From: an uncultured bacterium
GTDB taxonomy: Bacteria; Acidobacteriota; DATKUA01
Reading direction: 5' to 3'
Assembly (NCBI GenBank): GCA_965602675.1
Contig: CBFCZO010000007.1
Location: forward strand, 4,240-68,239
DNA: 64,000 nt
Positions 3,101 to 28,987 of the stretch are shown in pieces; the first letter of the stretch is position 1; each line of letters opens with the position of its first letter. The notes below the pieces were generated by a model, which saw nothing but the letters and a program-made list of their open reading frames with translations, ran no database searches and was not told the DNA's origin. The position numbers and the translations under genes were made by a program.

Positions 3101-3111
3101 GGAGTTCTAAT

Positions 3112-4029: not shown

Positions 4030-4049
4030 GTTTGCAGACAGTATAAACA

Positions 4050-4086: not shown

Positions 4087-4092
4087 CTCAAC

Positions 4093-9489: not shown

Positions 9490-9502
9490 CCACCAGGCTC
9501 CG

Positions 9503-10477
9503 CTAAAGGTCGAGTTGCCTGCCGATCCCTTTCACAAGAGCGCGCCGGTAAACCAGCGGTGCCGTCGCCATGTCGTCGAGGGCAAGGCCGAGGTTGACTG
9601 AGAATATCCGCTCGTCGTCTCTTTCCCTACCGGGAGATTTACCTGCAACCAGGTCGCCGAGATCCAGAATCCTTTCAGGAATGCCCTTGAAATAGCCGAC
9701 CTCGCGGTAGTAGAGCATCTGTTTCACATCGTCGGTGTAGAACTTGTCGGCGCGCTGGAACGGCTCGTGCTTCCAGTAGGAATCGAAATCGACCGGCGAG
9801 GCGAAAGCCCCCGGCTCGAACCACCCGTCTTCGATCACCGGATCCGGATTCTTTAAAATCGGACCGGCGGTGACGACGATATCGCTGCCCCTGACCGCCG
9901 CCTCGGGTGTTTCTACAATCTCGACCTCGATACCCAGTTCTTCACCAACCTTGTCACGGTAACGGCCGGCTGCTTCTTCGACGATATCGAAGGCTTTCAC
10001 CTTTTTAACGTCGAAGACGCATTTCAGCGCCTCGACATTGCTGAAGCCCTGAACTCCACAGCCCAGCACGCCGACAATCTCGGAATCCCGGCGGGCGAGG
10101 TACTTGGCCGCCACCGCAGTCGCCGCGCCGGTTCTCTTGGCCGTCACCCAGGCGCAATCCATCACGCAAACCGGCACGCCCGTCTCCGGATCGTTCAATA
10201 TCATTAGACCGTTGATATACGGCAAGCCGCGTCCGGGATTCTCGGGATACCCGGATACCCATTTCATTCCGGCCGAGTTGAGCGCGGGAATGAAAGCGGG
10301 CATGGCGTGAATAAATGCATCGGGCCTCGTATGAATTCCGGGTTTGGGGGGCATTTCCACCCTCCCTTCCCCCTTTTCCCTGAACATCATCTCGAGAGCA
10401 TCGATGATCTCCGCCATCGGCACGCCGACGCTCTCCACATCTTCTTGTGAAAGATAAAGAATCCTCTCTCCCGACAT
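9503..10477 (-). CDS. Ornithine cyclodeaminase / mu-crystallin family protein
   Basis: Family-typical central NAD-binding region (…SEIVGVLGCGVQGFSNVEALKCVFD…) and 324-aa size. A GAGGGTG ribosome-binding site precedes the ATG. Confidence 0.75.
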   Translation of the reverse strand: MSGERILYLSQEDVESVGVPMAEIIDALEMMFREKGEGRVEMPPKPGIHTRPDAFIHAMPAFIPALNSAGMKWVSGYPENPGRGLPYINGLMILNDPETGVPVCVMDCAWVTAKRTGAATAVAAKYLARRDSEIVGVLGCGVQGFSNVEALKCVFDVKKVKAFDIVEEAAGRYRDKVGEELGIEVEIVETPEAAVRGSDIVVTAGPILKNPDPVIEDGWFEPGAFASPVDFDSYWKHEPFQRADKFYTDDVKQMLYYREVGYFKGIPERILDLGDLVAGKSPGRERDDERIFSVNLGLALDDMATAPLVYRRALVKGIGRQLDL

Positions 10478-10644
10478 CGATTCACCCTCGTTTCAAACAA
10501 TTCGCCTGCAATAAATTCTCATGGTTCCGGGGGATAATGCAAGAACGCTTACTGCCGGCATGCCGTTGATTGCGAGATAGTCCCTCCTGGTGATATTAAT
10601 TGTCCCTCGAATTTGTTATAAACCACGAATAGTGTGATAACTCA

Positions 10645-12804: not shown

Positions 12805-12838
12805 ACATCAAACGAAAAAACAATCTAGTATAAACAGG

Positions 12839-15022
12839 ATGCGATATTCGAGGAGTACTGTTGTGAATTCGTTCTTGAGAACCGTTACGGCGGCCGTAGC
12901 CGTTTCCGCTGCTCTCGCACTGATTCTGACGGCCGGTGGTTGCAGCCGCGGAGAAGAAACCAAGCCGACCGCGGCTCTGGCCGCAAAGCCGGATAAGATA
13001 AATATCCTGCTGTTGACAATAGACACGTTGCGCACGGACCACCTCGGCTGCTATGGCAACGAGATAGTCGAAACCCCCGAGATCGACCGCATCGCGGCCG
13101 AAGGTGCGCGCTTCGATTTCTGCGTCGCCCACAACACGGTCACGTTGCCGAGCCACATCAATATTCTCACCGGGGAAGATCCCAGAACTCACGGCGTGCA
13201 CGACAACACCGGTTTCCGCCTGAAGCCGGAGACGGTCACGATCGCCGAGATTCTACACGACGCGGGTTACGGCACGGGTGCGTTCGTCGCCGCTTTTGTT
13301 CTCGACAGCCGCTACGGCATCGACCAGGGATTCGATCTCTACGATGACTACTACGGCATTAACCGTCCGGGCAACCCGCTGATCTCCGAACGTCCCGCCA
13401 ATGAGGTGGTCGATCCGGCCCTGCAGTGGATCAAGGGCCAGGGAGATAAACCCTGGTTCGCTTGGATCCATGTTTACGATCCCCACGCACCCCACCAGGT
13501 GGCGGAGCCGTTTGCCAGAAAATTCAAGGATAACCTCTACGCCGGTGAGGTCAGCTTCGTCGACCTCAATTTTGGAAAGGTGTTCGACTACCTGCGCAAC
13601 AGCGGCAAGATAGACAACACCCTGATTATAATCACCGCCGACCACGGGGAAGGTCTCGGCGACCACGGCGAAGACACCCACGGAATATTCGCCTATAACC
13701 CGACACTCTGGATTCCACTGATTATCCGGGCGCCGTGGTCCATACCCTCCGGAACCGTTGTCGAGCGCCGCGTTCGCCACATAGACATTTTACCGACGAT
13801 CCTGGACACCCTCGCAATCGAGGTACCTGAAAATAAGGGAGGCGAGTCCCTTCTTGCAGTGGCGAAGACGAGGGCTCCCGGCAATGCACCCGACAGCTAT
13901 TTCGAAGCCCTCAGCGCCTCCTTCAACAGAGGCTGGGCACCGCTGCGCGGAGTGCTGCACGACAACTGGAAATACATCGACCTGCCCCTGCCCGAGCTCT
14001 ACGACATGGCCGCTGATTTCCAAGAAAAATCGAACCTGATTGAATCCAGGGCGGGGACCGCCGCGTCGCTCCGTCGCATTCTGTCGCAGCTGCGGGAAGG
14101 CGAGGACGACGCATTCGAGTCGCGGATCACAGAAAGCGAGGAAACGCGCCAACGCCTGCGCAACCTCGGTTATCTGACCGGCACAAATGTGATCGATAAA
14201 AAGACGCACGGCCCCCATGACGACCCCAAGAATCTCATCGGACTCAGCAACCGGCTCGACAAGGGCGTCTCGCTGGCCACCGCCGGCAAATGGGATGAAG
14301 CCGAAGAAGTTCTCACTGCCCTGATCAATGAACAACCCGATATGGCGATCGCCTACAAGCATCTCGCGTGGGTTTATACCGATTCCGGGAGGCCTCAGCA
14401 GGCTGTGGAATTGATGGATGCCGCGGCGAAGAGAGGCATCGGCGGTAACGAGACCCTCACAGGCCTTGCGATGGCCCTCCAGGAAGCCGGCGAATCCAGG
14501 CGGTCTGTGGAAATACTCGAGGTGATCCGGCAGGACAATCCCGACGATATCGAGATCCTGCATTACCTCGCGATGGGCTTCGGAAATCTGGGCGAGGTGG
14601 CTAAATCGGAGGACCTGTTCATCCAGGTGCTTGAGCGCGATCCGAGTTTCCTGGAAGCCAGAGGTAACCTCGGCTGGCTACTCCTCGATGGCGGCCGCGA
14701 GCAGGAAGCCATGGAGCAGTTCAACATCGCCCTCAGGCAATTCCCTTATCACGCCAATTCGCTGCACGGAAAGGGATTGATCTATGAACGGTTCAAGAGG
14801 TGGGATGACGCAGTTGCCGCTTACCGTGAAGCCCTGAAAGCCGACCGCAAGCGCTACCCTGCGATGCTGCAACTGGCGATCGTGCTCACCCGTAGAGGCG
14901 ATTTCACAGAGGCGATTCCTCTGCTCGAACAATTCCTCAAAGAAGCTCCGGCAGGCAAGTATCCCGAAGAGCGAGCCGGAGCTCAGCGGCTGCTCAGCAG
15001 GTTGAAACAGCACGGTCAGTAG
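12839..15022 (+). CDS. Sulfatase-TPR lipoprotein, paralog of the preceding gene
   Basis: Roughly 60% identical to the preceding gene over its whole length (…TIDTLRTDHLGCYGN…ITADHGEGLGDHGE…). The six-frame ORF opens at 12659 but overlaps the upstream gene; the ATG at 12839 or the GTG at 12863 (behind GAGGAG) is more plausible. Confidence 0.75.
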   Translation: MRYSRSTVVNSFLRTVTAAVAVSAALALILTAGGCSRGEETKPTAALAAKPDKINILLLTIDTLRTDHLGCYGNEIVETPEIDRIAAEGARFDFCVAHNTVTLPSHINILTGEDPRTHGVHDNTGFRLKPETVTIAEILHDAGYGTGAFVAAFVLDSRYGIDQGFDLYDDYYGINRPGNPLISERPANEVVDPALQWIKGQGDKPWFAWIHVYDPHAPHQVAEPFARKFKDNLYAGEVSFVDLNFGKVFDYLRNSGKIDNTLIIITADHGEGLGDHGEDTHGIFAYNPTLWIPLIIRAPWSIPSGTVVERRVRHIDILPTILDTLAIEVPENKGGESLLAVAKTRAPGNAPDSYFEALSASFNRGWAPLRGVLHDNWKYIDLPLPELYDMAADFQEKSNLIESRAGTAASLRRILSQLREGEDDAFESRITESEETRQRLRNLGYLTGTNVIDKKTHGPHDDPKNLIGLSNRLDKGVSLATAGKWDEAEEVLTALINEQPDMAIAYKHLAWVYTDSGRPQQAVELMDAAAKRGIGGNETLTGLAMALQEAGESRRSVEILEVIRQDNPDDIEILHYLAMGFGNLGEVAKSEDLFIQVLERDPSFLEARGNLGWLLLDGGREQEAMEQFNIALRQFPYHANSLHGKGLIYERFKRWDDAVAAYREALKADRKRYPAMLQLAIVLTRRGDFTEAIPLLEQFLKEAPAGKYPEERAGAQRLLSRLKQHGQ

Positions 15023-15548
15023 ACACTGGATTTATCAACTTGAAGAGATAGATCAAACAACCCGCCGACACCTGCGCTCTCTACCCGCTGGTTTAACGGG
15101 ATTACATCTCGGCTCCTTCCTCCAACCGGACGGCATGTTGCCCCCCCCCTGATAAATCCGAAAAGCGGGCGACGGAATAAACCTCTTATTACCATCATGC
15201 CACAGGACTTGGAGGAAGGAACTCTCGCGCCGCGCTGTGGCCGCTCGCCCGCCAAACTCTGACCGACTCAATAAAACTCCCGAAGCTTAGACAAAACGCT
15301 GAACGCAATATACAAGTTCCCGAATCAATAATACGGTGTAACGTATTCAATATTATACATCGTAAATCATTTATTCTACACCACTTGTAACACTTAATAT
15401 TATAATCGCAATAGCAAATCCATTTATCTGTTGTGGCACTACAGAAATATGTATACACGTACTTGAAGTGTCGATTCATAATTATGTAACCCCATTGTTT
15501 GCAATGGAATAAAATCGCCTATTTGTGTCAACTTTCACCTGCCGCATT

Positions 15549-15564
15549 TGGCACACACATTGCT
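15549..15564 (+). promoter_or_regulatory. Sigma-54 (RpoN) -24/-12 promoter element, TGGCAC-N5-TTGCT, about 145 bp upstream of TBDR-like gene 1
   Basis: Exact match to the consensus TGGCAC-N5-TTGC in an AT-rich leader, correctly oriented. Confidence 0.65.
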
Positions 15565-15708
15565 TCGATATTCTGGTGTAGGGGAAGGGACTTTTTGACA
15601 CCTTTATAGTTATCCCGTCAGCGCGAGGAAAGGAGGGTGTGTGTATCTGGCGCTGTCCCCCGCGAGTAGGGTTTATATCTCATCAAATAGAATTTCTAAG
15701 GAGATGAC

Positions 15709-18495
15709 ATGAAAAAAATCCTCTTAACCGGTCTGTTACTTGCCGTGTGCGCAACGTTCGCGCTGGCGCAGACCACAACGGGTTCGATTTACGGAACCGT
15801 CAAGACTGCCGACGGGTTGGTGATACCTGACGTCAAGGTCTCACTCTCGGCCGAGCACGCTGCCACGATAACATCGATGACAAGCCAGCGTGGTGTTTTC
15901 CGCTTTGGCGAGCTGCCGATCGGCACCTTCACGCTCACCTTCGAAAAAGACGGTTACCAGAAGATTGTCCTGGAAGGTGTAGTGGTCAGAATTGCGGCGG
16001 CATCGCGCGTCGACATGACGCTCGAGGCCTCGGCAGCCGAGCAGGTAATCACGATCACCGGCGAGACCGCCGTTGTCGACCTCAAGAAGACCGGCACGGC
16101 AACCAACCTCTCGCAGGACTACCTCGCCAACATCCCCTCGGCGCGCGACCCCTGGGTCATCATGGATCAGGTGGCCGGCATCAACGTCGACCGCGTTAAC
16201 GTCGGCGGCTCCGAGTCGGGTCAGCAGAGCAACTTCGTCTCAAAGGGCGACGACGGCGACAACGCGATGTGGAACGTCGACGGCATCACCATCACCGACC
16301 AGTCGTCGATGTCCTCGCCCGGCTACTACGACTACGACTCTTTCGAAGAGATGCAGATCACCACGTCCGGCGCCGATGCCTCAATCCAGACCGCCGGCGT
16401 GGCACTGAACTTCATCACCAAGCAGGGCAGCGACACCTTACACGGCCAGGGCAGCGCCTACTATACCGGCGAGAGCCTGCAGGGCGAGAACGTTCCGTCC
16501 GACCTGGAAGCCCTCGGCTATGCCGGCAACCAGATCGACAGCATCAAGGACTACGGCTTCGACGTCGGCGGCCCGATCTGGAAGGGCAACCTCTGGTTCT
16601 GGGGCGCCTACCGCATGCAGAACATCTCGATGCTGGCGATCACCGGCATGGTCGACGCCACCGAGCTGAAAAACTACAACCTCAAGTTCACCGGCCAGGC
16701 AGGCGACCGCAACCGCTGGACCTTCTTCTACACCCGCGGCGAGAAAATCAAAACCGGCCGTAACGCGGCCTGGAACCGCCCGCCCGAGACCACCCACGAC
16801 CAGGGCGGCCCGACCATCCTCTACAAAGTCGAGGATACCTTCCTGGCGACCGACGACCTTATCCTGTCGGGTAAATTCGCCTACGTCGACAGCGGCTTCT
16901 TCCTGATGCCGCAAGGCGGCGACGCCATCCCCTTCCGCGAAGATTCCACCTACATGTACGGCGGCTCTTCGTGGTACTACGACACCAAGCGCCCCGAGTA
17001 CCAGCTCACAGTGACCGGCGAGCAGTATATCGAGGAAGCCTTCGGCGGCAGCCACGAGATCAAGGCCGGCTTCGAGTGGCGCAAGACCCCTGTGACCTCG
17101 CTCTCCGGCTACGGCGCCGACATGTTCCAGGTGCTGTGGGAGGGCGAGCCTTATGAGGTCTGGCTGACCGGAAAGGTCGACGCCAAAAAGGTGGCGATGC
17201 GCACCAGCTTCTACGCGATGGACATCTTCAACATCGACCGCTGGACCTTCAACATCGGCGTCCGCTACGACCGCCAGTGGGGCTACAACCAGGCCGCCAC
17301 GGTCGCCGGCAACCCGGTAATCCCAGACATCATTCCCGATCTCAACTACCAGGGTACCGACACCGTATTTGAGGTCTCCACTTTCGTGCCCCGCATTGGC
17401 GCGACCTACGATGTCTTCGGCGACGGCAAGACCGTTGTCCGTGCCAACTTCTCGATCTACGGCGACCAGATCATGGCCGGCACCGCCGAGCTGGTTAACC
17501 CGGCCGGCTGGCGCGAGGTCGACATGGAGTGGACCGACCTCAACGGCGACATGTACCCGCAGCGCAGCGAGCTGGGCGCGATCACCTGGTGGTACGGCCT
17601 CAACCCGTTCGATTCCACCGCCGACCCATACGACACCGGCATGAGGATCGAGACCAGCCAGCTGCCGCGCACAACCGAGTTCCTCCTCGGCGTGGAACGC
17701 GAAGTCATGCCGGAGCTCTCTGTCGCCGGCACCTTTATTTATCGCTACATAGACAAGTTCAACTGGCGTCCGGACGATGCATGGGTCAACGATCCCTACA
17801 CGCTGGCCGGCAGCGTCAGCCAGGGCGGCTTCACCCGCGAGTACTACGAGCCGACCGTGGACCCGGCGGGCACCTCGGCATTGCAGCCTCAGCCCGATTA
17901 CAACCGTAAGTACATGGGCGTCGAATTCCAGGTGACCAAGCGCCTCGCCGACAAGTGGATGGCCAACGCCTCCTTCTCCTATGGAGACACCAAGGTCTAC
18001 TACGGAAGCGATAAGGCTTATACCGACCCGACCAACATCCCGGTTCTCGACGGCTACTCCTACGCCCCGGAGACCAGCGGCAGCGGCAAGGCTTCCATCT
18101 TCATGAACTCCAAATGGGCCTTCAAGCTGACCGGACTCTACCAGCTGCCCTTCGACATCAACATCAGCGGCTACCTCAGCATGCGCGAAGGCTTCGCCTA
18201 CCCGATCCGCCTGCGCTCACCCTACCGCAATTTCTCGGCCGGCCGCGCCTACGCCCAGGCAGAGCCGATGGGCGAGAACCACCTGCCGTTACTGACGATG
18301 GTCGACTTCCGCGTCGAGAAGACCATTAATGTCAGTGATTTCGGTCGCCTCGGCATCATCATGGACGTCTTCAACCTGCTCAACACCGACACCACACTCG
18401 GCAAGAACCGCGACGGCTGGACCAGCTCATTCGGCCAGGTCACCGAGATCGTCAACCCGCGCATCTTCCGCCTCGGCGTGAGATTCCAGTTCTGA
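15709..18495 (+). CDS. TonB-dependent-receptor-like outer-membrane beta-barrel protein with N-terminal carboxypeptidase-regulatory-like domain (paralog 1)
   Basis: Signal peptide, CarboxypepD_reg-like beta-sandwich (GSIYGTVKTADGLVIPDVKVSL…), a plug-like segment, a long barrel region and the C-terminal …RFQF ending in aromatic Phe. An AAGGAG ribosome-binding site precedes the ATG. Confidence 0.8.
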   Translation: MKKILLTGLLLAVCATFALAQTTTGSIYGTVKTADGLVIPDVKVSLSAEHAATITSMTSQRGVFRFGELPIGTFTLTFEKDGYQKIVLEGVVVRIAAASRVDMTLEASAAEQVITITGETAVVDLKKTGTATNLSQDYLANIPSARDPWVIMDQVAGINVDRVNVGGSESGQQSNFVSKGDDGDNAMWNVDGITITDQSSMSSPGYYDYDSFEEMQITTSGADASIQTAGVALNFITKQGSDTLHGQGSAYYTGESLQGENVPSDLEALGYAGNQIDSIKDYGFDVGGPIWKGNLWFWGAYRMQNISMLAITGMVDATELKNYNLKFTGQAGDRNRWTFFYTRGEKIKTGRNAAWNRPPETTHDQGGPTILYKVEDTFLATDDLILSGKFAYVDSGFFLMPQGGDAIPFREDSTYMYGGSSWYYDTKRPEYQLTVTGEQYIEEAFGGSHEIKAGFEWRKTPVTSLSGYGADMFQVLWEGEPYEVWLTGKVDAKKVAMRTSFYAMDIFNIDRWTFNIGVRYDRQWGYNQAATVAGNPVIPDIIPDLNYQGTDTVFEVSTFVPRIGATYDVFGDGKTVVRANFSIYGDQIMAGTAELVNPAGWREVDMEWTDLNGDMYPQRSELGAITWWYGLNPFDSTADPYDTGMRIETSQLPRTTEFLLGVEREVMPELSVAGTFIYRYIDKFNWRPDDAWVNDPYTLAGSVSQGGFTREYYEPTVDPAGTSALQPQPDYNRKYMGVEFQVTKRLADKWMANASFSYGDTKVYYGSDKAYTDPTNIPVLDGYSYAPETSGSGKASIFMNSKWAFKLTGLYQLPFDINISGYLSMREGFAYPIRLRSPYRNFSAGRAYAQAEPMGENHLPLLTMVDFRVEKTINVSDFGRLGIIMDVFNLLNTDTTLGKNRDGWTSSFGQVTEIVNPRIFRLGVRFQF

Positions 18496-18517
18496 CATCG
18501 GTTGACGTAGAAGCTTC

Positions 18518-18548
18518 AAAGGCGGGGGGATCCACCCCCGCCTTTCTT
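18518..18548 (+). terminator. Intrinsic terminator after TBDR paralog 1
   Basis: GGCGGGGGG…ACCCCCGCC hairpin followed by TTTCTT. Confidence 0.6.
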
Positions 18549-18841
18549 ACACCCCGGGCAACTCGATATATTTGATCTACTCTACTGCTATTTCTACATA
18601 CACTACATTTCGATGGATTAACGATCCATAAAAATCATTGTGCATTTCACCACTTCTGAACCTGCCTCTCCATGACGCCGCTAATGACGGCACCACAGAC
18701 AGTAACGGAACAACCCAGCCCAAATAAATTCTAATTATCGAATACAATTTTTTGTATCAACAATACGAATTATTGAATCAGCGTCGATTGTGAAATCGAT
18801 TAAGTCATTGAATACGCTACATTTATTCATTGGCAACAATC

Positions 18842-18857
18842 GGGCACAATAGTTGCA
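18842..18857 (+). promoter_or_regulatory. Sigma-54 -24/-12 element, GGGCAC-N5-TTGCA, about 150 bp upstream of TBDR-like gene 2
   Basis: The GG-N10-GC core is conserved. Position and spacing are equivalent to those of paralog 1. Confidence 0.55.
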
Positions 18858-19005
18858 TTCTTAATTTGCCAGCGGAGGTTCAACTTTTTGTACAACACAT
18901 CCAACAAATCGTACGGCGCGAAAGGAGGTTGGTGAGGGGGTCCGTACAGTTGAGCCTCATTTATAGGGTGTTTGACTTTTCTAAACAAAAGTTACAGGAG
19001 ATGAC

Positions 19006-21789
19006 ATGAAAAAAATCCTCTTAACCAGTCTGTTGCTGGCGCTGTGTGCAACAGTCGCGCTGGCGCAGACCACAACGGGTTCGATTTACGGAACCGTCAA
19101 GACAGCCGAAGGATTGATTATTACGGAAGCTAAAGTCACGTTGTCTGCCGAGCACGCAGCAGGGAAGACAGTGATGACCAGCAACCGCGGCACTTTCCGC
19201 TTCGGTGAGCTGCCGATCGGCGCCTTCACGGTGACCTTCGAAAAAGAGGGCTACCAGACCCTAATCCTCGAAGGCGTGATTGTTCGCCTGGGCGCCGCAG
19301 CTCGCGTCGACGCCACCCTCGAGGTTTCGGCGGTCGAGCAGGTGATCACCATCACCGGCGAGACCGCGGTGGTTGACATGAAGAAAACGGGGACGGCCAC
19401 CAACATCTCACAGGACTACCTCGCCAATATCCCGTCGGCGCGCGACCCCTGGGTCATCATGGACCAGGTGGCCGGTATTAACGTCGACCGCGTCAACGTC
19501 GGCGGCTCCGAGTCGGGTCAGCAGAGTAACTTTGTCTCCAAGGGCGACGACGGCGACAACGCGATGTGGAACGTCGACGGCGTCACCATCACAGACCAGT
19601 CGTCAATGTCCTCACCGGGCTACTACGACTACGACTCCTTCGAAGAGATGCAGATCACCACATCCGGCGCCGACGCCTCGATTCAGACCGCCGGCGTTGC
19701 GCTGAACTTCATCACCAAGCAGGGCAGCGACACCTTCCACGGCCAGGGCAGCGCATACTACACCGGCGAGAGCCTGCAGGGCGAGAACATACCCTCCGAC
19801 TTGGAAGCCCTGGGCTACGCCGGCAACAAGATCGACAGCATCAAGGACTACGGCTTCGACGTCGGCGGCCCGATCTGGAAGGGCAACATCTGGTTCTGGG
19901 GCGCCTATCGCATGCAGGACATCTCGATGCTGACGATTACCGGCACAACGGACGCCACCGAGCTGAAGAACTACAACCTTAAGTTCACCGGTCAGGCCGG
20001 TGACCGCAACCGCTGGACCTTCTTCTACAACCGCGGCGAGAAGATCAAGACCGGCCGTAACGCGGCCTGGAACCGTCCGCCCGAGACCACCCACGACCAG
20101 GGCGGCCCGGGCATAATCTACAAGATCGAGGACACCTTCCTGGCGACCGACGACCTTATCCTGTCGGGTAAATTCGCCTATGTCGACAGCGGCTTCTTCA
20201 TGATGCCGCAAGGCGGCGACGCCATCCCCTTCCGCGAGGACTCCACCGGTATGTACGGCGGCTCTTCGTGGTACTACGACACCATGCGTCCGCAATACCA
20301 GTTTACCGTGACTGGCGAGCAGTACATCGACGAGGCCTTCGGCGGCAGCCACGAGATCAAGGCCGGCTTCGAGTGGCGCAAGACCCCGGTGACCTCGCTC
20401 TCCGGCTACGGCGCCGATATGTTCCAGGTGCTGTGGGAGGGCGAGCCTTATGAGGTCTGGCTGACCGGAAAGGTCGACGCCAAAAAGGTGGCGATGCGCA
20501 CCAGCTTCTACGCGATGGACATCTTCAACCGCGATCGCTGGACCTTCAACTTCGGCGTGCGCTACGACCACCAGTGGGGCTACAACGTAGCTTCGCAGGC
20601 AGGCGGCAATCCGGTCATCCCCGACCTGATCCCCGACCTCAACTACGGCGGCACCGACACAGTTTTCAAAACCACTGATTTCCTGCCGCGCTTCGGCTTG
20701 ACCTATGACATCTTCGGCGACGGCAAGACGATTTTCCGCGGTAACTTCTCGATCTACGGCGACCAGATCATGGCCGGCACCGCTGCAACGGTTAACCCGC
20801 TGACTTGGCGCGAGATCGATTACGAGTGGACCGACCTCAACGGCGACATGTACCCGCAGCGTAACGAACTTGGTGCGATCACCTGGTGGGGAGGCCTCAA
20901 CCCGTTCGACCCCGGAGATCCGCTCGACAACGGCCGCAGGATCGAGACCGACCAGCTGCCCACTACCTATGAGGTTATCTTCGGCGCCGAGCGTGAAGTT
21001 ATGCCGGAGCTGGCGGTTTCGGGAACCTTCATATACCGCTACTTCACCGACTACAACTGGCGTCCGGACGACGCATGGGTCAACGATCCTTACACGCTGG
21101 CCGGCAGCGTCACCCAGGGCGGCTTCACCCGCGAGTACTACGAGCCGACAATGCAGCCGAGAGGCACTTCGGCATTGCAGCCCCTGGCCGATTACCACCA
21201 AAAGTACATGGGCTTCGAGTTCACCGTGACCAAGCGCCTCGCCGACAAGTGGATGGCCAACGCCTCCTTCTCCTACGGCGACACCAAGGTCTACTACGAC
21301 AGCGACGCGGCCTACACCGATCCCACCAACATCTCGGTTCTCAACGGCTACTCCTACGCCCCGCAGACGAGCGGCAGCGGAAAGGCTTCCATCTTCATGA
21401 ACTCCAAGTGGGCCTTCAAGCTCACAGGACTCTACCAGTTGCCCCTCGACATCAACATCAGCGGCTACATCAGCATGCGCGAAGGCTTCGCCTACCCGAT
21501 CCGCCTGCGTTCGCCCTACCGCAACTTCTCGGCGGGCCGCGTCTACGCCCAGGCAGAGCCGATGGGCGAGAACCACCTGCCGTTGCTCACGATGGTGGAC
21601 TTCCGTGTTGAAAAGACCTTCAGGATCCAGGATTTCGGCCGCCTCGGCCTGATCATGGACGTCTTCAACCTGCTCAACACCAACACCACACTCGGCAAGA
21701 ACCGCGACGCCTGGACCAGCTCATTCGGCCAGGTCACAGAGATCGTCAACCCGCGCGTCTTCCGCCTCGGAGTGCGCTTCCAGTTCTAA
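19006..21789 (+). CDS. TonB-dependent-receptor-like OM protein with CarboxypepD_reg domain (paralog 2)
   Basis: About 85% identical to paralog 1, with the same architecture and the same terminal …RFQF. Confidence 0.8.
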   Translation: MKKILLTSLLLALCATVALAQTTTGSIYGTVKTAEGLIITEAKVTLSAEHAAGKTVMTSNRGTFRFGELPIGAFTVTFEKEGYQTLILEGVIVRLGAAARVDATLEVSAVEQVITITGETAVVDMKKTGTATNISQDYLANIPSARDPWVIMDQVAGINVDRVNVGGSESGQQSNFVSKGDDGDNAMWNVDGVTITDQSSMSSPGYYDYDSFEEMQITTSGADASIQTAGVALNFITKQGSDTFHGQGSAYYTGESLQGENIPSDLEALGYAGNKIDSIKDYGFDVGGPIWKGNIWFWGAYRMQDISMLTITGTTDATELKNYNLKFTGQAGDRNRWTFFYNRGEKIKTGRNAAWNRPPETTHDQGGPGIIYKIEDTFLATDDLILSGKFAYVDSGFFMMPQGGDAIPFREDSTGMYGGSSWYYDTMRPQYQFTVTGEQYIDEAFGGSHEIKAGFEWRKTPVTSLSGYGADMFQVLWEGEPYEVWLTGKVDAKKVAMRTSFYAMDIFNRDRWTFNFGVRYDHQWGYNVASQAGGNPVIPDLIPDLNYGGTDTVFKTTDFLPRFGLTYDIFGDGKTIFRGNFSIYGDQIMAGTAATVNPLTWREIDYEWTDLNGDMYPQRNELGAITWWGGLNPFDPGDPLDNGRRIETDQLPTTYEVIFGAEREVMPELAVSGTFIYRYFTDYNWRPDDAWVNDPYTLAGSVTQGGFTREYYEPTMQPRGTSALQPLADYHQKYMGFEFTVTKRLADKWMANASFSYGDTKVYYDSDAAYTDPTNISVLNGYSYAPQTSGSGKASIFMNSKWAFKLTGLYQLPLDINISGYISMREGFAYPIRLRSPYRNFSAGRVYAQAEPMGENHLPLLTMVDFRVEKTFRIQDFGRLGLIMDVFNLLNTNTTLGKNRDAWTSSFGQVTEIVNPRVFRLGVRFQF

Positions 21790-21810
21790 GCGGTTACTGA
21801 CCGACGTCAA

Positions 21811-21846
21811 AGGGCGGGGAGGATTATCCTTCCCGCCCTTTTCTTA
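21811..21846 (+). terminator. Intrinsic terminator after TBDR paralog 2
   Basis: GGGCGGGGAGG…CCTTCCCGCCC hairpin followed by TTTTCTT. Confidence 0.6.
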
Positions 21847-21872
21847 CAACCCGCCTTCCAAGTCCAAAACTC

Positions 21873-22475
21873 ATGAACCGCTGTTCTATCCCAGAAGGAC
21901 CTCAGACGATCGAGCAGTACGACGGCCACAGCTACACGCCGCAGACGGGTGGAAGCGGCAAGTCGGCGATCTTCATCAACTCGCGGTGGGCTTTCAAGGC
22001 CACCGCCTCGTACCAGTTCCCGCTTGATATCAATGTTTCCGGATACTTCAGCCTGCGCGAAGACTTCGTACACCCGATCCGCGTGCGTTCACCGTATAGG
22101 GACCACTTCGCGGGCAGGGTTTACCCGGTGGTCGAGCCGATCGGAGAGAACCACCTGCCTAACCTGTCGGTCTTCGACGTGCGCGTGGAAAAGGTCTTCC
22201 GGTTGCAGGATTTCGGCCGCTTGGGCCTGATCATGGACGTGTTCAACGTCTTCAACACCGATTCAACGCTCGGCAAGAACCGTAACGCCTACCAGAGCAC
22301 TTTCGATCAGATCACAGAGATCGTTAATCCGAGGCTGTTCCGTTTCGCCGTGCGTTTCCAGTTCTGGGACAATATCGGCTGTCTTGATGGCCTTTTGCGG
22401 GGAGGAATTCTTCCTCCCCGCGCTTTTTTTATAGATACTCCAGAGGATCCTGCCAGGAACCAATCCGCCCCCTGA
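21873..22475 (+). pseudogene. 3' remnant (last ~150 aa) of a fourth TBDR-like paralog, stop codon lost
   Basis: The translation aligns with the C-terminal barrel strands of the full copies (…YTPQTGGSGKSAIFINSRWAFK…FRFAVRFQF). The TGA that follows RFQF in the other copies is TGG here, so the frame runs on by 35 codons. No 5' 85% of the gene and no promoter are present. The remnant has its own terminator hairpin at 22396-22432. Confidence 0.6.
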
Positions 22476-22632
22476 GATAGAAGGTAATTATTCAAAAATT
22501 CGATTCATATTTTCCTGCTAGTATTCAATTTTGTGAATACAAATTTGTGGATTCCCAATACCACAATCTGTATCAGCAAGCCGACCGCCACCCTCAATTG
22601 ACCAATACTCCCGATAAATAAGCGCCGCGTGC

Positions 22633-22647
22633 GGCACAATAATTGCT
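22633..22647 (+). promoter_or_regulatory. Sigma-54 -24/-12 element, (C)GGCAC-N5-TTGCT, about 140 bp upstream of TBDR-like gene 3
   Basis: GGCACAATAATTGCT is nearly identical to the paralog-2 element GGCACAATAGTTGCA. Confidence 0.55.
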
Positions 22648-22785
22648 CTTATCCTTAAGAAGTCACAGAGACACAACTCTTTTTATTGCAGCAGTTATAA
22701 GAGAAAGGAGGTGAGGATTAGCGCGTAAGCATCACCTATCGGACAACAACCTTTTTTTCTCCAAGCTAAAAATCAGGGAGCTAAC

Positions 22786-25584
22786 ATGAAAAAAATTACA
22801 CTGACTCTGTTGCTGCTTGCGCTGTGCGCCACGCTGGCGACGGCACAGACGACAACGGGGTCGATCTACGGCACAGTCAAGACAGTCGACGGGCTTGTCA
22901 TTACCGATGTCAAGATAACGCTGACCGCTGAACACGCTGTAACCTTGACAATAACTACCGGCGAACGCGGCTCTTTCCGCTTCGGCGAACTGCCAATCGG
23001 CATGTTCAACATGACCTTCGAGAAAGAGGGTTATCAGACCCTGATTATCGAAGGAGTCATGGTACGCATTGCCGCCGCCTCGCGTGTCGACGCAACTCTG
23101 GAAGTTTCCGCGGTCGAGCAAACGATCACCATCACCGGCGAGACGGCGTTGGTCGACCTTAAGAAAACCGGCACGGCGACGAACCTGTCGCAGTCCTATC
23201 TGTCCAACATCCCCTCCGCCCGCGATCCCTGGGTTATCCTAGATCAGGTCGCAGGCATCAACGTCGACCGCGTCAACGTGGGCGGCTCGGAGTCGGGCCA
23301 GCAGAGCAACTTCATGTCACACGGTGATGATGGCGATAACGTGATGTGGAACATCGACGGCATTACCATCACCGACCAGTCATCGATGTCATCGCCCGGC
23401 TACTACGACTTCGACTCGTTCGAAGAGATGCAGATCACCACTTCCGGCGCGGACGCTTCGATTCAGACCGCCGGCGTGGCGCTGAACTTCATCACCAAGC
23501 AGGGCAGCGACACCTTCCACGGACAGGGCAGTGTCTACTACACCAACGATAGCCTGCAGGGTGAGAACATCCCGTCCGATCTGGAGGCGAGAGGATACTC
23601 GGGCAACCAGATCGACAGCATCAAGGACTACGGCTTCGACGCCGGCGGTCCTATCTGGAAGGGCAAACTCTGGTTCTGGGGCGCCTATCGCATGCAGGAC
23701 ATCACACTGCTGACGATCACCGGCCAGTCAGACGCCACCCAGCTGAAGAACTACAACCTCAAGTTCACCGGCCAGGCCGGCGACCGCAACCGCTGGACCT
23801 TCTTCTACACCCGCGGTGAAAAGATCAAGGACGGCCGCGGCGCTGCCTGGAACCGTCCGCCCGAAACAACCTTTGACCAGGGCGGACCGACCATCCTCTA
23901 CAAAGGCGAGGATACCTTCCTTGCTACCGACAACCTTATCCTCAGCGCCAAGTTCGCCTACGTCGACAGCGGCTTCTTCTTCCATCCGAAGGGCGGCGAC
24001 GCCATCCCGTACCGTGAAGACTCGACCGGTATTTGGGGTGGTTCCTTCTACTACTATGATACCACCCGTCCAGAGTACCAGTTCACTGGAACCGGTGAGT
24101 ATTACATCGAAGAGGCGTTCGGCGGCAGCCACGAGATCAAGGCCGGCTTCGAGTGGCGCAAGACCCCGGTGACCTCGCTCTCCGGTTACGGCGCCGACAT
24201 GGCGCAGATGTTATGGGAAGGCGAGCCCTACATGGTCTGGTTGACCGGCAAGGTCGACGCCAAGAAGGTGGCGATGCGCACCAGCTTCTACCTGATGGAT
24301 ATCTTCAACATGGACCGCTTCACCTTCAACTTCGGCCTGCGCTACGACCGCCAGTGGGGCTATAACAATGCTTCCAGGGCTGCCGGCAACCCGGTAATTC
24401 CCGATATCATCCCCGATCTCGACTACCAGGGCTCCGACACCGTCTTCAGCAGCACTGATATCGTGCCTCGCCTAGGCATGACCTACGACGTCTTCGGCGA
24501 CGGCAAGACGATCATCCGCGCCAACTTCTCAATGTACGCCGACCAGATCCAGGCCGGCACCGCCGAGTACGAAAATCCGCTCGGCTGGCGCGAAGTCGAC
24601 TACTACTGGACCGACCTCAACGGCGACATGTACCCGCAGAGTAACGAGTTGGGCGATATCGACTGGTGGTACGGCCTCAACCCGTTTGATCCCAACGCCG
24701 ATCCGTATATCACCAACGTGAATGTGACAGCCGAGAACGTAGCCCGCACGATGGAATTCCTCATCGGCGTCGAACGCGAGATCATGCCGCAGGTTGCCGT
24801 TTCCGGCACCTTCGTCTACCGCAAGTTCACCGACCTCTTCTGGCCGTGGAACGCCCTGCCCGACGATAACTGGCGGAGCGATCCTTGGACGGTCGCAGGC
24901 AGCGTGACCCAGGGCGGCTCCACGCGCGATTATTACGAGCCGACCATGGATGCGGCCGGAACGGTCACCTATGACAACCGTCCCGACTACTACCGCGTCT
25001 ACAAGGGACTGGAAGTTCAGGCTACCAAGCGCCTGGCCGACAAATGGATGGCTTCCGCGTCCTTCTCCTACGGCAGCACAACTCAGCACTTCGACAGCCC
25101 GGCTGCCTATGAAGACCCGACAAACATCCCGCAGACAAACGGCTTTGCCTACGCCCCTGAGTCCGGCGGCAGCGGCAAAACCGCCATCTTCATGAACTCG
25201 CGCTGGGCCTTCAAGCTGACCGGCCTCTACCAGCTCCCTTACGACATCAACGTCAGCGGCTACCTCAGCATGCGTGAGGGATTCGCCTACCCCGTTCGGC
25301 TCCGCTCGCCTTCGCGCGCATTCAGCGCCGGCAGGGCATACCCGCTGGCCGTTGGCATGGGTGAGGAGCACCTGGACAACGTGACGATGGTCGACCTGCG
25401 CGCCGAGAAGATTTTCAATCTTAAGGACTACGCGCGCGTCGGCCTCATCATGGACGTCTTTAACCTTCTTAACACAAATACCGAGCTGGGTCGCAACCGC
25501 GACGCCTGGCATAGCACTTTCGGCCAGGTTACCGAGATCGTGAACCCGAGGATCTTCCGCCTCGGCGTGAGACTCCAGTTCTGA
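22786..25584 (+). CDS. TonB-dependent-receptor-like OM protein with CarboxypepD_reg domain (paralog 3)
   Basis: About 75-80% identical to paralogs 1 and 2, with the same architecture and C-terminal …RLQF. The terminator (GCGGGGGGGG…CCTCCCCGC followed by TCTTTTCTT) is at about 25610-25650. Confidence 0.8.
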   Translation: MKKITLTLLLLALCATLATAQTTTGSIYGTVKTVDGLVITDVKITLTAEHAVTLTITTGERGSFRFGELPIGMFNMTFEKEGYQTLIIEGVMVRIAAASRVDATLEVSAVEQTITITGETALVDLKKTGTATNLSQSYLSNIPSARDPWVILDQVAGINVDRVNVGGSESGQQSNFMSHGDDGDNVMWNIDGITITDQSSMSSPGYYDFDSFEEMQITTSGADASIQTAGVALNFITKQGSDTFHGQGSVYYTNDSLQGENIPSDLEARGYSGNQIDSIKDYGFDAGGPIWKGKLWFWGAYRMQDITLLTITGQSDATQLKNYNLKFTGQAGDRNRWTFFYTRGEKIKDGRGAAWNRPPETTFDQGGPTILYKGEDTFLATDNLILSAKFAYVDSGFFFHPKGGDAIPYREDSTGIWGGSFYYYDTTRPEYQFTGTGEYYIEEAFGGSHEIKAGFEWRKTPVTSLSGYGADMAQMLWEGEPYMVWLTGKVDAKKVAMRTSFYLMDIFNMDRFTFNFGLRYDRQWGYNNASRAAGNPVIPDIIPDLDYQGSDTVFSSTDIVPRLGMTYDVFGDGKTIIRANFSMYADQIQAGTAEYENPLGWREVDYYWTDLNGDMYPQSNELGDIDWWYGLNPFDPNADPYITNVNVTAENVARTMEFLIGVEREIMPQVAVSGTFVYRKFTDLFWPWNALPDDNWRSDPWTVAGSVTQGGSTRDYYEPTMDAAGTVTYDNRPDYYRVYKGLEVQATKRLADKWMASASFSYGSTTQHFDSPAAYEDPTNIPQTNGFAYAPESGGSGKTAIFMNSRWAFKLTGLYQLPYDINVSGYLSMREGFAYPVRLRSPSRAFSAGRAYPLAVGMGEEHLDNVTMVDLRAEKIFNLKDYARVGLIMDVFNLLNTNTELGRNRDAWHSTFGQVTEIVNPRIFRLGVRLQF

Positions 25585-25758
25585 TCCGGCGACCTGAGCG
25601 ATAGCACAAAGCGGGGGGGGGTAAAAACCTCCCCGCTCTTTTCTTATTCTCTGCACTTCTGATATATTTAGCCACGCAAGTATCGGTGTCTTCTCGAGAG
25701 CCGGAACTGCGCAAATTAAGTATTGTCAATATTATGAATGATATTTCGCGTACGAGGT

Positions 25759-26727
25759 ATGGATATGCTTAGCAGACGGCCGGTTTATACGGTACTTTTC
25801 ACAGCTGTAATCTTCCTTGCAGCTTCCATCAGCCTCAGCGCCCAGGATTGGAGGGGACAGGGCCGGGTTATAGGCACGGTAAGCGCGCCCGACGGCACGC
25901 CGATCGCGGGCTGTCAGGTCAAGGGCACTCACCAGAGTTATCAGGACGGCCCCACGGTCGAGACTGACGAGAAGGGCAAATGGACAATCAGCGGAGTCAG
26001 AGGGGGAACCTGGATGATAGATTTTTATCATCCTGACTATCAGCCATACGGCATCAGCGTCCAGATCAGCAACGTCCGCCGCGGCAAGCCGATTGACATC
26101 GTGCTCCAGCCAGCCACGGGAGTCATCGGCGGCGTCGATGACGCGCTGGCCGAAGATGTTGCGGCGGCTGAAGAACTCTACGAAGCCGGCAACTACCAGG
26201 AAGCTCTGGACGCATTCAGCACCATTCTGGAGCAGAAGCCTGAGGTCAACGCGATACGCGTGCGCATCGGTGAGTGCCACCTGCAGCTCGGCAACAGCGA
26301 CGAGGCGAAGGCTCTCGGCGAGCAGGTGCTCTCGGCTGATCCCAACAACGCCGCAGCTCTCACGCTGATGGGCAACATAGCCTACAAACAGTCCGACTGG
26401 GAATCCGCGGAGAAATACTATTCCAGGATCGTCGAGCTCGCCCCGGGCGACGCAGGTGTCTGGGCCAACCTCGGCGAAATCACCATGAACCTGCGCAAAT
26501 ACGATAAAGCGCAGGAGGCCTACGAGAAGGCGATAGAGCTCAACCCGCAGTTCTTCGACCTTTACGTGCAACTGTCGGCAGTCCAGATGGTCGCGGAGGA
26601 ATACGATAAAGCCTTGGCAACACTTCAAAAGCTCAAGGAACTCGCCCCCCCCGACCACCAAATCTTCCAGATCTGGAACGTGGACGAGCTGATTGCAATT
26701 TGCCAAGCCGGGCTTGAGAACAAGTAA
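25759..26727 (+). CDS. Secreted carboxypeptidase-regulatory-like domain plus TPR repeat protein
   Basis: Signal peptide, then a CarboxypepD_reg-like segment (GRVIGTVSAPDGTPIAGCQVKG…DEKGKWTISGVRGGTWMIDF), then TPR-like helices. The start (25759 or 25765) is ambiguous. Confidence 0.65.
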   Translation: MDMLSRRPVYTVLFTAVIFLAASISLSAQDWRGQGRVIGTVSAPDGTPIAGCQVKGTHQSYQDGPTVETDEKGKWTISGVRGGTWMIDFYHPDYQPYGISVQISNVRRGKPIDIVLQPATGVIGGVDDALAEDVAAAEELYEAGNYQEALDAFSTILEQKPEVNAIRVRIGECHLQLGNSDEAKALGEQVLSADPNNAAALTLMGNIAYKQSDWESAEKYYSRIVELAPGDAGVWANLGEITMNLRKYDKAQEAYEKAIELNPQFFDLYVQLSAVQMVAEEYDKALATLQKLKELAPPDHQIFQIWNVDELIAICQAGLENK

Positions 26728-26775
26728 AAACAACCAGCCCGGCCGGGACGGCATTAAATTGCCGGGAGGATAGGC

Positions 26776-28977: not shown

Positions 28978-28987
28978 GAAAAGAGTT

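Follow-up and report, generated by a model that had tools for sequence, protein, structure and literature searches.

Within the 64-kb stretch of Acidobacteriota DNA analysed here (hereafter the window), three paralogous genes lie head-to-tail on the + strand: g1 (15709-18495, encoding 928 aa), g2 (19006-21789, 927 aa, 87% identical to g1) and g3 (22786-25584, 932 aa, 77% identical to g1). The 3′ part of a fourth paralog is located between g2 and g3 on the same strand (ORF 21873-22475), with a homologous region (21900-22364) that corresponds to the C-terminal ~155 aa of the paralogs and is 59-67% identical to them. This confirms the preliminary description of three genes and one remnant; it gave 75-85% identity for the three genes, and the pairwise amino-acid identities computed for them are 86.9, 77.4 and 76.4%. 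In the remnant, the stop codon has changed from TGA to TGG, and ORF 21873-22475 thus reads through its own terminator. No promoter, Shine-Dalgarno (SD) sequence or leader box (described below) of its own was found for this ORF, and it is probably a pseudogene. The spacers at ~15300-15600, ~18600-18900 and ~22400-22700 have a GC content of 0.31-0.45 compared to ~0.60 in the genes, in keeping with the AT-rich leaders reported earlier. The first non-transporter genes downstream of the array encode TPR, VWA and GWxTD proteins, and no tonB or exbBD genes were found in the 64-kb window.

A hairpin followed by a T-run is present on the + strand after each gene, located at 18518-18549 for g1 (AAAGGCGGGGGG / CCCCCGCCTTT, then a T-rich tail), 21810-21846 for g2 (AAGGGCGGGGAGG / CCTTCCCGCCCTT, then TTTCTT) and 25610-25646 for g3 (AGCGGGGGGGGG / CCTCCCCGCT, then CTTTTCTT). 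The individual terminators noted previously are hence recovered, and the remnant also has one (22396-22431, TGCGGGGAGGAA / TTCCTCCCCGCG, then a T-run), which with a stem of 12 pairs is the best terminator match in the region. The proposal that the genes are transcribed independently is supported by the fact that each paralog carries its own promoter-like element as well as its own terminator.

On the basis of the predicted structure, the proteins are Oar-subclass TonB-dependent transporters. The g1 product consists of a signal peptide, a CarboxypepD_reg N-terminal domain, a probable plug and a barrel, and the N-terminus of the transporter reads MKKILLTGLLLAVCATFALAQ. In the paralogs, PF13620 is matched at residues 26-106, after the signal peptide (E=5e-14 to 2e-11), and the barrel matches PF25183 (E=9e-20). 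The Pfam Plug model scores 21.1 bits in g3 against a threshold of 23.9, is absent in g1 and g2, and is above threshold in many homologs. A TonB-box-like strand (EQVITIT) is located at residues 111-117, and the C-terminus (...RFQF) has an aromatic end. An AlphaFold model of g1 (pLDDT 87.2, pTM 0.85) contains a beta-sandwich at residues 24-100 and aligns whole-chain to plug-plus-barrel TonB-dependent transporters over 840-920 columns. The top Foldseek matches all belong to this class, i.e. FusA (E=2e-42), YddB, PfeA, FecA and SusC, with a probability of 1.0 and target-normalised TM-scores of 0.66-0.77 for the first four. The barrel is predicted to be a 22-strand outer-membrane beta-barrel.

The likeness to Oar of Myxococcus xanthus and its subclass extends to the signal peptide, the PF13620 extension, a probable plug with a TonB-box-like strand, the predicted 22-strand barrel, the PF25183 match and the lack of a SusD partner (PMC6434023). 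In contrast, identity is only ~23% to the single Myxococcota homolog recovered, which may or may not be Oar itself, and the genes described here are arranged in tandem, with 3 and up to at least 10 paralogs per array. The preliminary description considered the proteins to be outer-membrane importers. The fold is that of a TonB-dependent transporter, but import is not established: Oar, the namesake of the subclass, is needed for secretion of the protease PopC (PMC6434023). In the SusC/SusD loci of Bacteroidota, too, the TonB-dependent transporter has a CarboxypepD_reg-like domain at its N-terminus, and SusC chains are found among the Foldseek matches (ranks 24, 35 and others). Unlike in those loci, no SusD-like gene was found adjacent to the transporter genes: the genes are monocistronic, each followed by its individual terminator and then the next transporter gene, and the regulation proposed below does not involve ECF sigma/anti-sigma or hybrid two-component systems.

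Each gene is preceded on the + strand by a sigma-54-type -24/-12 element, as had been reported. The g1 element spans 15548-15564 (TTGGCACACACATTGCT; TGGCAC-ACACA-TTGCT from 15549, with GG at 15550-15551 and GC at 15562-15563), the g2 element 18841-18857 (CGGGCACAATAGTTGCA; GGGCAC-AATAG-TTGCA from 18842, GC at 18855-18856) and the g3 element 22631-22647 (GCGGCACAATAATTGCT; GGCAC-AATAA-TTGCT from 22633, GC at 22645-22646). The distance from GG to ATG is 159, 163 and 153 nt for g1, g2 and g3 respectively, and the GG at -24 and GC at -12 are exactly 10 nt apart in all three window sites as well as in ~45 homologous sites from related loci. The canonical GC-to-+1 distance would place the g1 transcription start near 15575; those of g2 and g3 are predicted near 18868 and 22658.

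To assess how unusual these elements are, both strands of the window were searched for GGCAC-N5-TTGC. Exactly three matches were found in 64 kb, all at the leaders and on the gene strand, against a shuffle expectation of 0.65 (three matches were reached in 2 of 100 shuffles); the strict core of 9 bases is hence enriched. When one mismatch is allowed the motif is not enriched, with 13 matches observed and 17 expected. The sites agree at 10-12 of the 13 core positions with the sigma-54 consensus mrNrYTGGCACG-N4-TTGCWNNw as quoted in PMC2725144, where primer-extension-verified Geobacter promoters match 9-11 of 13. A weight-matrix scan had been suggested in the preliminary description; an equal-weight consensus score over 13 positions (YTGGCACG-N4-TTGCW) ranks g1 as the top site in the window (12/13, 0.29 expected), but g2 (11/13) and g3 (10/13) do not exceed background. 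As the score singles out only g1, the support for sigma-54 is comparative rather than score-based. Furthermore, the three window sites are paralogous and therefore do not represent independent observations.

The comparison set comprises 944 kb, made up of the window and related loci. Of the GGCAC-N5-TTGC matches in it, 34 are on the gene strand and 1 is on the opposite strand; for TGGCAC-N5-TTGC these counts are 19 and 0. Approximately 31 of 39 GGCA[CT]-N5-TTGC matches sit 120-260 nt upstream of a homolog of 900-1050 aa with a signal peptide. At least four sequence groups carry the motif (window-type, Aminicenantes, where it takes the form TTGGCACG-N4-TTGCA, and two soil groups); they share 27-35% protein identity and range from 37 to 70% GC, and GG-N10-GC with full TGGCAC/TTGC flanks is conserved across all of them. 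As for other arrays, 5 of the 6 spacers in a stretch of 7 genes contain it, as do 10 out of 11 additional copies. At the level of individual orthologs, a related locus (L017) retains the g1 site in orthologous position and has a -24/-12 core identical to that of g2, and an orthologous g3 element (GGCACAACAATTGC) occurs twice in a second locus (L018). The element has been retained in spacers that have otherwise diverged to a mean column identity of 53-65%. The earlier reading of these genes as controlled by RpoN and an enhancer-binding protein (EBP) hence gains comparative support, from the 34 to 1 strand bias and the dyads described below, although the consensus score lifts g1 only.

A comparison of the leaders for shared upstream activator sites had also been suggested earlier; upstream of the -24/-12 element, they carry a dyad of the form AT-N-CA-N6-TG-N-AT. 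The candidate enhancer of g1 (15439-15489, + strand) contains three overlapping or adjacent dyads at 15439-15454, 15453-15468 and 15474-15489, each matching 7 of 8 positions and located at -111, -97 and -76 from the -24 GG. That of g2 (18742-18778, + strand) has two dyads 21 bp apart, ATACAATTTTTTGTAT at 18742-18757 (8/8, -101) and ATACGAATTATTGAAT at 18763-18778 (7/8, -80), and both positions are kept in the L017 ortholog (ATCCAGAAAAATGTAT and ATACGATATATTGGAT). Three dyads make up that of g3 (22523-22573, + strand): ATTCAATTTTGTGAAT at 22523-22538 (8/8, -110), ATACAAATTTGTGGAT at 22537-22552 (8/8, -96) and ATACCACAATCTGTAT at 22558-22573 (7/8, -75). These positions recur in both L018 orthologs, and 22521-22540 in the g3 leader forms a perfect inverted repeat, GTATTCA-N6-TGAATAC.

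Promoters carry one to three such dyads 75-135 bp upstream of the -24 GG; those of the window span -75 to -111, and some in relatives lie as far out as -147. Neighbouring dyads are typically 14-23 bp apart. Within the region -150 to -60, a dyad of at least 7/8 is present in all 29 promoters (14 perfect), compared to 5.1% of shuffle trials (0.2% perfect) and to 0/28 and 1/28 control regions. In each of the four groups, the density of TGRAT/ATYCA half-sites peaks at -120 to -80, reaching 30-81 per kb where 2-7 would be expected. Judged from their sequence and placement, the dyads look like an enhancer where an EBP would bind. AT-N-CA-N6-TG-N-AT is not known to match the site of an EBP (NtrC, NifA, XylR, NorR, FhlA, TyrR).

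A second conserved block is located downstream of the -24/-12 element. Each leader contains the sequence GAAAGGAGG once, on the + strand, and these are its only three copies in the window: in g1 at 15628-15636 (80 nt after GG, with 79-80 nt remaining to the ATG), in g2 at 18920-18928, and in g3 as part of a longer box, GAAAGGAGGTGAG at 22703-22715, in which GAAAGGAGGTGA could pair with the 16S rRNA 3′ tail over 12 uninterrupted bases and includes one G flanking them. In the window the extended form, GAAAGGAGG(TGA), is complementary to the 16S 3′ tail, lying 79-85 nt before the ATG; the window contains no rRNA gene, and the tail sequence is an assumed one. The box is distinct from the true SD, which in g1 reads AAGGAG (15698-15703, + strand), 5 nt before the ATG at 15709; overall, GAAAGGAGG(TG) precedes the real SD by 72-150 nt. 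In the 944 kb, AAAGGAGGTG is found 18 times on the gene strand and never on the other. The GG-to-box distance is 79.3 ± 3.2 nt in window-type loci (n=18) and 80.4 ± 5.1 nt in the soil group (n=8), and the box-to-ATG distance varies (89 ± 13 nt and 121 ± 14 nt, respectively). Of 48 homolog loci that do not have the promoter, 47 also do not have the box. As a weak hint that the box might lengthen mRNA half-life, 12 of 13 gene-sized, possibly transcript-derived contigs fall in a cluster bearing the module.

Downstream of the box, neither a start codon nor an ORF length or an encoded peptide is conserved, the candidate ORFs being 0-41 codons long and mutually unrelated. By analogy, the box most likely acts like the STAB-SD of Bacillus thuringiensis cry3A (Agaisse & Lereclus 1996, cited in PMC12970973), in which case a docked 30S subunit would protect or stabilise the mRNA; it could also act as a standby site. 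STAB-SD is likewise a GAAAGGAGG-type sequence that perfectly complements the 16S 3′ end; it is placed in the 5′ UTR, with ~80-125 nt separating it from the start codon, and is not used for translation start. It differs in belonging to Firmicutes rather than a diderm phylum, and in lying at a processed 5′ end rather than at a fixed ~55 nt from a predicted sigma-54 start; the box described here is, unlike that of cry3A, coupled all-or-none to a sigma-54-type promoter. Folding of single sequences often predicts base pairs for the box, with partners that differ between leaders, and such pairing would make it less accessible to the 30S subunit.

For the array as a whole, we consider it likely from the sequence that each paralog is a self-contained transcription unit duplicated as a cassette. 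Such a cassette would begin at the terminator of the preceding gene, followed by an AT-rich spacer with one to three dyads, a sigma-54 (RpoN) -24/-12 promoter and a 5′ UTR of ~135 nt with the GAAAGGAGG(TG) box at ~+55, and would end with the real SD and ATG, the Oar-subclass transporter gene and its own intrinsic terminator. RpoN holoenzyme would wait on the promoter as a closed complex, until an unlinked, ATP-hydrolysing bacterial EBP (bEBP) bound at the dyads makes contact by looping of the AT-rich DNA and the promoter fires. In the resulting transcript, the leader box would pair with the 16S rRNA 3′ end without starting translation. As all copies share the dyad type, the array and related genes elsewhere would answer one signal, as a regulon.

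The earlier statement that the window encodes no EBP holds: Pfam scans of its ~38 ORFs found no Sigma54_activat or sigma-54 domain, and its six-frame translation contains no GAFTGA or Walker-A signature. Nor was an EBP gene found next to any of the ~100 loci in the flanks fetched, and the activator is therefore entirely hypothetical. We assume that rpoN and an EBP are present in the source genome, given that sigma-54 is almost universal in diderm, LPS-bearing bacteria (Francke et al. 2011). The proposed architecture resembles that of established sigma-54/bEBP promoters (glnAp2-NtrC, Pu-XylR, nifH-NifA) in the exact 10-nt GG/GC distance within TGGCAC-N5-TTGC, in the dyad-symmetric sites, usually two, ~80-130 bp upstream, in the AT-rich, bendable DNA in between and in having one promoter per gene. 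It differs in the lack of linkage between the activator gene and the targets, and in that these are Acidobacteriota outer-membrane TonB-dependent transporters. No description of a sigma-54 link to TonB-dependent transporters in Acidobacteriota was found in the literature searched or the comparative sigma-54 survey, and the presence of the cassette in distant relatives points to an undescribed, phylum-wide Acidobacteriota regulon.

Transcription might instead depend on sigma-70-type promoters in the AT-rich spacers, with GGCAC-N5-TTGC serving as the operator of another protein or as part of an extended sigma-70 promoter. Sigma-70-like hexamers do occur in the spacers (e.g. TCTACA-17-TATTAT at 15375-15403), and the g2 and g3 consensus scores at background level fit this reading; however, such matches are no commoner in the array than in shuffles (3 found, 4.3 expected) and are not conserved among the paralogous leaders. 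All groups instead conserve the GG-N10-GC signature of sigma-54 with its flanks, and EBP-dependent promoters typically have a dyad enhancer ~100 bp upstream. Hence, we regard sigma-70 control of the array as unlikely. One soil subgroup has a conserved TTGACC-N17-TAGAGT directly after the -12 TTGC, and sigma-54 may not be the sole promoter there; the hexamer pair is confined to this subgroup. Gene-sized contigs from a related subgroup, which could be transcripts or the product of assembly breakpoints, begin ~11 nt downstream of the predicted start. Several begin at or before TAGAGT, which, should they be transcripts, rules out that transcription starts downstream of the hexamer.

It is less probable still that the conserved blocks form a cis-acting leader RNA, akin to a riboswitch or attenuator, with the promoter located further upstream and both the '-24/-12' and the box acting as RNA elements. 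Such an RNA would account for the length of the leaders (135-250 nt), for the fixed spacing between GG and box and for the pairing of the box often seen when single sequences are folded. In contrast, RNAalifold gave no structure with the box in it that is conserved or shows covariation, and Rfam searches of the window at the gathering threshold, and of the array at E<=5, matched no family apart from one chance match inside a gene. The upstream block is furthermore invariant exactly at the positions read by sigma-54, and the terminator of the preceding gene lies 200-600 nt upstream with no conserved promoter in between. Finally, that the shared motifs have no function and merely persist from a recent tandem duplication or from gene conversion is strongly disfavoured and highly improbable: the three units are indeed paralogs, and g1 and g2 are nearly identical in the first ~40 nt of coding sequence and in their SD regions, yet the -24/-12, box and dyad positions are invariant in spacers of 53-65% column identity, the same elements and geometry recur in lineages at ~30% protein identity with very different GC content, and the strand bias is 34 to 1.

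The three transporter genes, g1 (15709-18495), g2 (19006-21789) and g3 (22786-25584), lie head-to-tail and encode proteins sharing 86.9, 77.4 and 76.4% identity. A remnant (21900-22364) that aligns with the C-terminal ~155 residues of the paralogs at 59-67% identity is located between g2 and g3. Its stop codon now reads TGG, so that the remnant ORF passes through its own terminator and extends to 22475. The GC content of the spacer before each gene is reduced to 0.31-0.45, from about 0.60, and a hairpin with a T-run is found downstream of g1, g2, g3 and the remnant. The preliminary description of three tandem paralogs plus a remnant, each gene with an AT-rich leader and its own hairpin terminator, is hence borne out, and the three -24/-12 strings it reported were recovered exactly where it had placed them (15549, 18842 and 22633). 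In a related organism, at least 10 tandem transporter paralogs run up to the contig end (loci L096 and L100; ENA ERZ21869602 ctg93875l, 137260-169181), and another contig of that sample carries 5. Array size is thus highly variable between relatives. The tandem arrays, from 3 to at least 10 copies, show an organisation in autonomous, separately terminated units rather than operons. A run of ~9 G is present in the left arm of the g3 terminator (25613-25621) and one of ~9 C in the spacer 5' of the first promoter (15143-15151); homopolymer runs of this kind are prone to slippage and sequencing error.

The strict sigma-54-type motif GGCAC-N5-TTGC (GG corresponding to -24, GC to -12) has 3 matches on both strands of the window, compared to 0.65 expected from shuffles. 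They correspond to the three leaders, each in the orientation of its gene and 153-163 nt 5' of the ATG. With one mismatch allowed, no enrichment was seen in the window. As a stand-in for the position weight matrix scan proposed in the preliminary description, every window position was scored with equal weights on the 13 specified positions of YTGGCACG-N4-TTGCW, the consensus quoted for 186 promoters in PMC2725144. The g1 site (12/13) is the best consensus score in the window, with 0.29 expected by chance, whereas the g2 (11/13) and g3 (10/13) sites do not rise above the window background. Experimentally verified Geobacter promoters match this consensus at 9-11/13 (PMC2725144). Given the one-mismatch result, the background scores of g2 and g3, and the fact that the three sites are paralogous and hence not independent observations, the weight of the argument had to rest on other genomes.

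Loci of relatives were fetched from reference genomes (15) and metagenomes (80), with larger arrays obtained via exact-protein look-ups. The closest genomes are Acidobacteriota MAGs, with more distant homologs from Aminicenantes and soil Acidobacteriota. Across 944 kb of window and relatives, 34 matches to the strict motif lie on the gene strand versus a single one on the opposite strand; for TGGCAC-N5-TTGC, the corresponding counts are 19 and 0. About 31 of the 39 matches to GGCA[CT]-N5-TTGC lie 120-260 nt 5' of a 900-1050 aa homolog with an N-terminal signal peptide. The motif is also found in lineages only 27-35% identical to the window proteins, and the GC content of these lineages ranges from 37% (ATTGGCACGNNTTTTGCA) to 70% (TGGCACCCCGCTTGCTT). 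Among close orthologs, spacers have diverged down to 53% column identity with the GGCAC and TTGC blocks unchanged. One related contig has at least 10 copies in tandem. The element is present in 5/6 spacers of one stretch and for 10/11 further copies, with GGCAT, GGTAC and GGTAT among the natural variants. Strand bias and recurrence at such low protein identity support, at the level of sequence comparison, the reading of the leaders as sigma-54-type promoters. The promoter element is accompanied by upstream dyads and a downstream leader box, which together form one module per gene.

Ordinary sigma-70 promoters could instead drive the array genes. One soil subgroup indeed contains a conserved near-consensus TTGACC-N17-TAGAGT that begins right after the -12 TTGC (soil subfamily loci L037 (20-48), L041, L058, L067, L069, L074, L081, L083 and L087), hence dual promoters are possible in that subgroup. 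This element is absent from the window leaders, and sigma-70-like matches in the array region are neither enriched nor conserved among the paralogs, so we hold sigma-70 control of the array to be quite improbable. Among the metagenome contigs, about 20 are 3.0-3.4 kb in length and hold just a single transporter gene each (including L023, L029, L044, L050, L060, L065, L068, L080, L085, L093 and L094); gene-sized contigs in JGI data include Ga0314817, Ga0314818, Ga0314826, Ga0314827, Ga0308178, Ga0308183 and Ga0308189. They start 32-49 nt 5' of the leader box, several at the same aligned base and several at or before the TAGAGT hexamer, ~11 nt 3' of the predicted sigma-54 start. The L080 contig end consists of a terminator followed by AAAA, and 12/13 gene-sized contigs fall in a module-bearing protein cluster. 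These contigs look like assembled monocistronic transcripts, in which case their starts favour sigma-54 over sigma-70; breaks in the assembly at a shared repeat would account for them equally well.

To locate a candidate enhancer for the putative sigma-54 promoters, 29 of these in four sequence groups were aligned at the -24 GG. In all four groups, the pentamers TGRAT and ATYCA are densest at -120 to -80 (30-81 per kb versus 2-7 expected by composition), and they are arranged as dyads AT-N-CA-N6-TG-N-AT. Between -150 and -60, a dyad matching at least 7/8 specified positions is present in 29/29 promoters, and a perfect dyad in 14/29. Shuffled segments yielded these in 5.1% and 0.2% of trials, respectively, and two control regions from the same loci contained dyads in 0/28 and 1/28 cases. 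In the majority of promoters, there are two or three dyads with a spacing of 14-23 bp. The window dyads are located at 15439-15489 (g1), 18742-18778 (g2) and 22523-22573 (g3), and GTATTCA-N6-TGAATAC at 22521-22540 was reported independently by a repeat finder. Position, symmetry and multiplicity are as expected of an enhancer to which a bacterial enhancer-binding protein (EBP) would bind. Inspection by eye revealed no convincing WATCAA-N4-TTR match for an IHF site between enhancer and promoter. Two Aminicenantes loci, L012 (5580-6013) and L015 (3061-3628), have unusually long leaders (>400 nt) with a second ATCCA/TGGAT repeat block 3' of the first -24/-12 element and 5' of the leader box, suggestive of a control region that is duplicated or more complex.

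Every promoter-bearing leader contains (G)AAAGGAGGTG(A), a box type that is taken to be complementary to the 3' tail generally conserved in 16S rRNA (the window contains no rRNA gene of its own). GAAAGGAGG has exactly 3 matches in the window, one in each leader, while AAAGGAGGTG shows an 18 versus 0 strand distribution in all fetched DNA; a random stretch of 130 nt would have such a box with a probability of 2.2%. The distance from the -24 GG to the box is nearly constant, at 79.3 ± 3.2 nt (n=18) for the window-type subfamily and 80.4 ± 5.1 nt (n=8) for one soil subfamily. In contrast, the box-to-ATG distance is 89 ± 13 nt versus 121 ± 14 nt, respectively. The ordinary Shine-Dalgarno sequence of the genes is separate from the box, 5-7 nt 5' of the ATG. 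Neither a start codon, an ORF length nor a peptide after the box is conserved across leaders, and a uORF was rejected on these grounds. A leader RNA as the source of the conserved blocks is disfavoured by the lack of covariation. No conserved structure involving the box was found, the partners in single-sequence folds being inconsistent and RNAalifold returning just a small hairpin near the true Shine-Dalgarno sequence, and Rfam gave nothing relevant, either for the whole window at the gathering threshold or for the array at E<=5.

The box is absent in 47/48 homolog loci without the strict promoter motif, and the lone exception has a variant -24/-12 element (GTGGCAAGCCACTTGCT) 86 nt 5' of the box. 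Box and promoter are either both present or both absent. The nearest precedent is the STAB-SD of Bacillus thuringiensis cry3A, a GAAAGGAGG-type sequence ~125 nt 5' of the start codon that is proposed (PMC12970973) to bind the 30S subunit and so protect the mRNA. By analogy, a STAB-SD-like role may be considered the most likely for the leader box, an assignment we make tentatively and at less than an even chance.

Clustering of 86 homologs was used to place the module within the family. It is present in 11/14 members of the window-type cluster, in essentially all resolvable members of one soil cluster and in three AT-rich lineages; it was found in 0/31 members of the sister soil cluster, and overall on about 40% of sampled genes. 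Complete genomes with the module also exist, CP070825.1 among them. By this cluster-wise distribution, the module is old and subfamily-specific. That the shared motifs are relics of duplication is disfavoured, as the elements are kept across distant lineages. In one fetched locus (L102, 7372-9333), a module-bearing singleton paralog adjoins a divergent LytTR-type two-component system (histidine kinase and response regulator); this system includes no EBP and may be unrelated to the paralog.

Pfam assigns CarboxypepD_reg (residues 26-106) and the PF25183 barrel to the transporters, with Plug below threshold. No sequence-level matches were found in PDB or NCBIfam, hence structure prediction was needed. 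A confident AlphaFold model built from 36 homologs (pLDDT 87.2, pTM 0.85) has as best Foldseek matches exclusively TonB-dependent transporters (FusA, E=2e-42, followed by YddB, PfeA, FecA and SusC), and the architecture agrees with that described for the Oar subclass of Myxococcus xanthus. A SusC/SusD system was rejected, as there is no SusD partner gene. Secretion of the PopC protease depends on Oar (PMC6434023). Thus, of the 'outer-membrane importers' in the preliminary description, the predicted TonB-dependent transporter fold agrees with the outer-membrane assignment, while import should not be assumed.

Pfam scans revealed no EBP, rpoN, tonB or exbBD genes in the window, in keeping with the earlier statement that no EBP is encoded there. 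EBP signatures (GAFTGA/Walker-A) were likewise not detected in ~0.92 Mb of fetched flanks, nor an EBP gene in the neighbour Pfam lists of three contigs with further arrays. A literature search found nothing relevant linking sigma-54 to TonB receptors in Acidobacteria, and Francke et al. 2011 mention neither. Each cassette component taken singly is of a known kind; the combination of dyads, sigma-54 promoter and leader box points to a previously undescribed Oar-type transporter regulon in Acidobacteriota. Overall, the initial observation is confirmed and its interpretation supported.

A more far-reaching joint reading, which we regard as rather doubtful, is an ancient dedicated regulon across Acidobacteriota including Aminicenantes, with the box as obligatory partner of this promoter type. 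A single unlinked EBP would recognise the AT-N-CA-N6-TG-N-AT dyads across the regulon and drive sigma-54 transcription of whole Oar-type outer-membrane transporter families. With its constant place at about +55 of the transcript, the box complementary to 16S rRNA would dock the ribosome in a manner coupled to sigma-54 transcription, leading to mRNA protection or anti-termination in the long untranslated leader. If true, the box is more than a STAB-SD look-alike.

The Acidobacteriota rank among the most abundant bacteria in soil and carry very large genomic families of CarboxypepD_reg-type TonB-dependent transporters; to our knowledge, almost nothing is known of the control and cargo of these. 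The cassette offers a concrete, testable regulon definition that is searchable in any genome or metagenome. The dyad provides a DNA site for tracing the missing activator and, via the activator, the inducing signal, while the box may by analogy represent a non-Firmicutes case of an untranslated Shine-Dalgarno element affecting mRNA fate.

Directly past the array (25738-31138) are genes for a CarboxypepD_reg-TPR protein (329 aa), an acidobact_VWFA-type VWA protein (733 aa) and a GWxTD-TPR protein (716 aa). This trio has no sigma-54 module of its own and is also found 3' of arrays in two other organisms (L018, a locus with close orthologs, 6937-12362; L101, 16674-22061), and the conserved synteny in three organisms points to a functional connection with the transporters. 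Directly 5' of the array, adjacent paralogous genes (10645-12804 and 12659-15022) encode sulfatase-TPR fusion proteins; the ORFs overlap by ~145 nt as listed, thus the second, listed with a TTG start, probably begins further downstream. An IS200-like Y1 transposase gene (PF01797; 53325-53993) occupies the same position in two other contigs, L098 and L099. Elsewhere in the window, a multi-haem c-type cytochrome (503 aa; 42435-43946, reverse strand) has MtrC/MtrF-like and cytochrome c7 signatures, and a methylmalonyl-CoA/oxaloacetate decarboxylase-type cluster (78-5838) comprises a carboxyl transferase, a Na+-pumping OAD beta subunit, a formiminotransferase and a methylmalonyl-CoA mutase.
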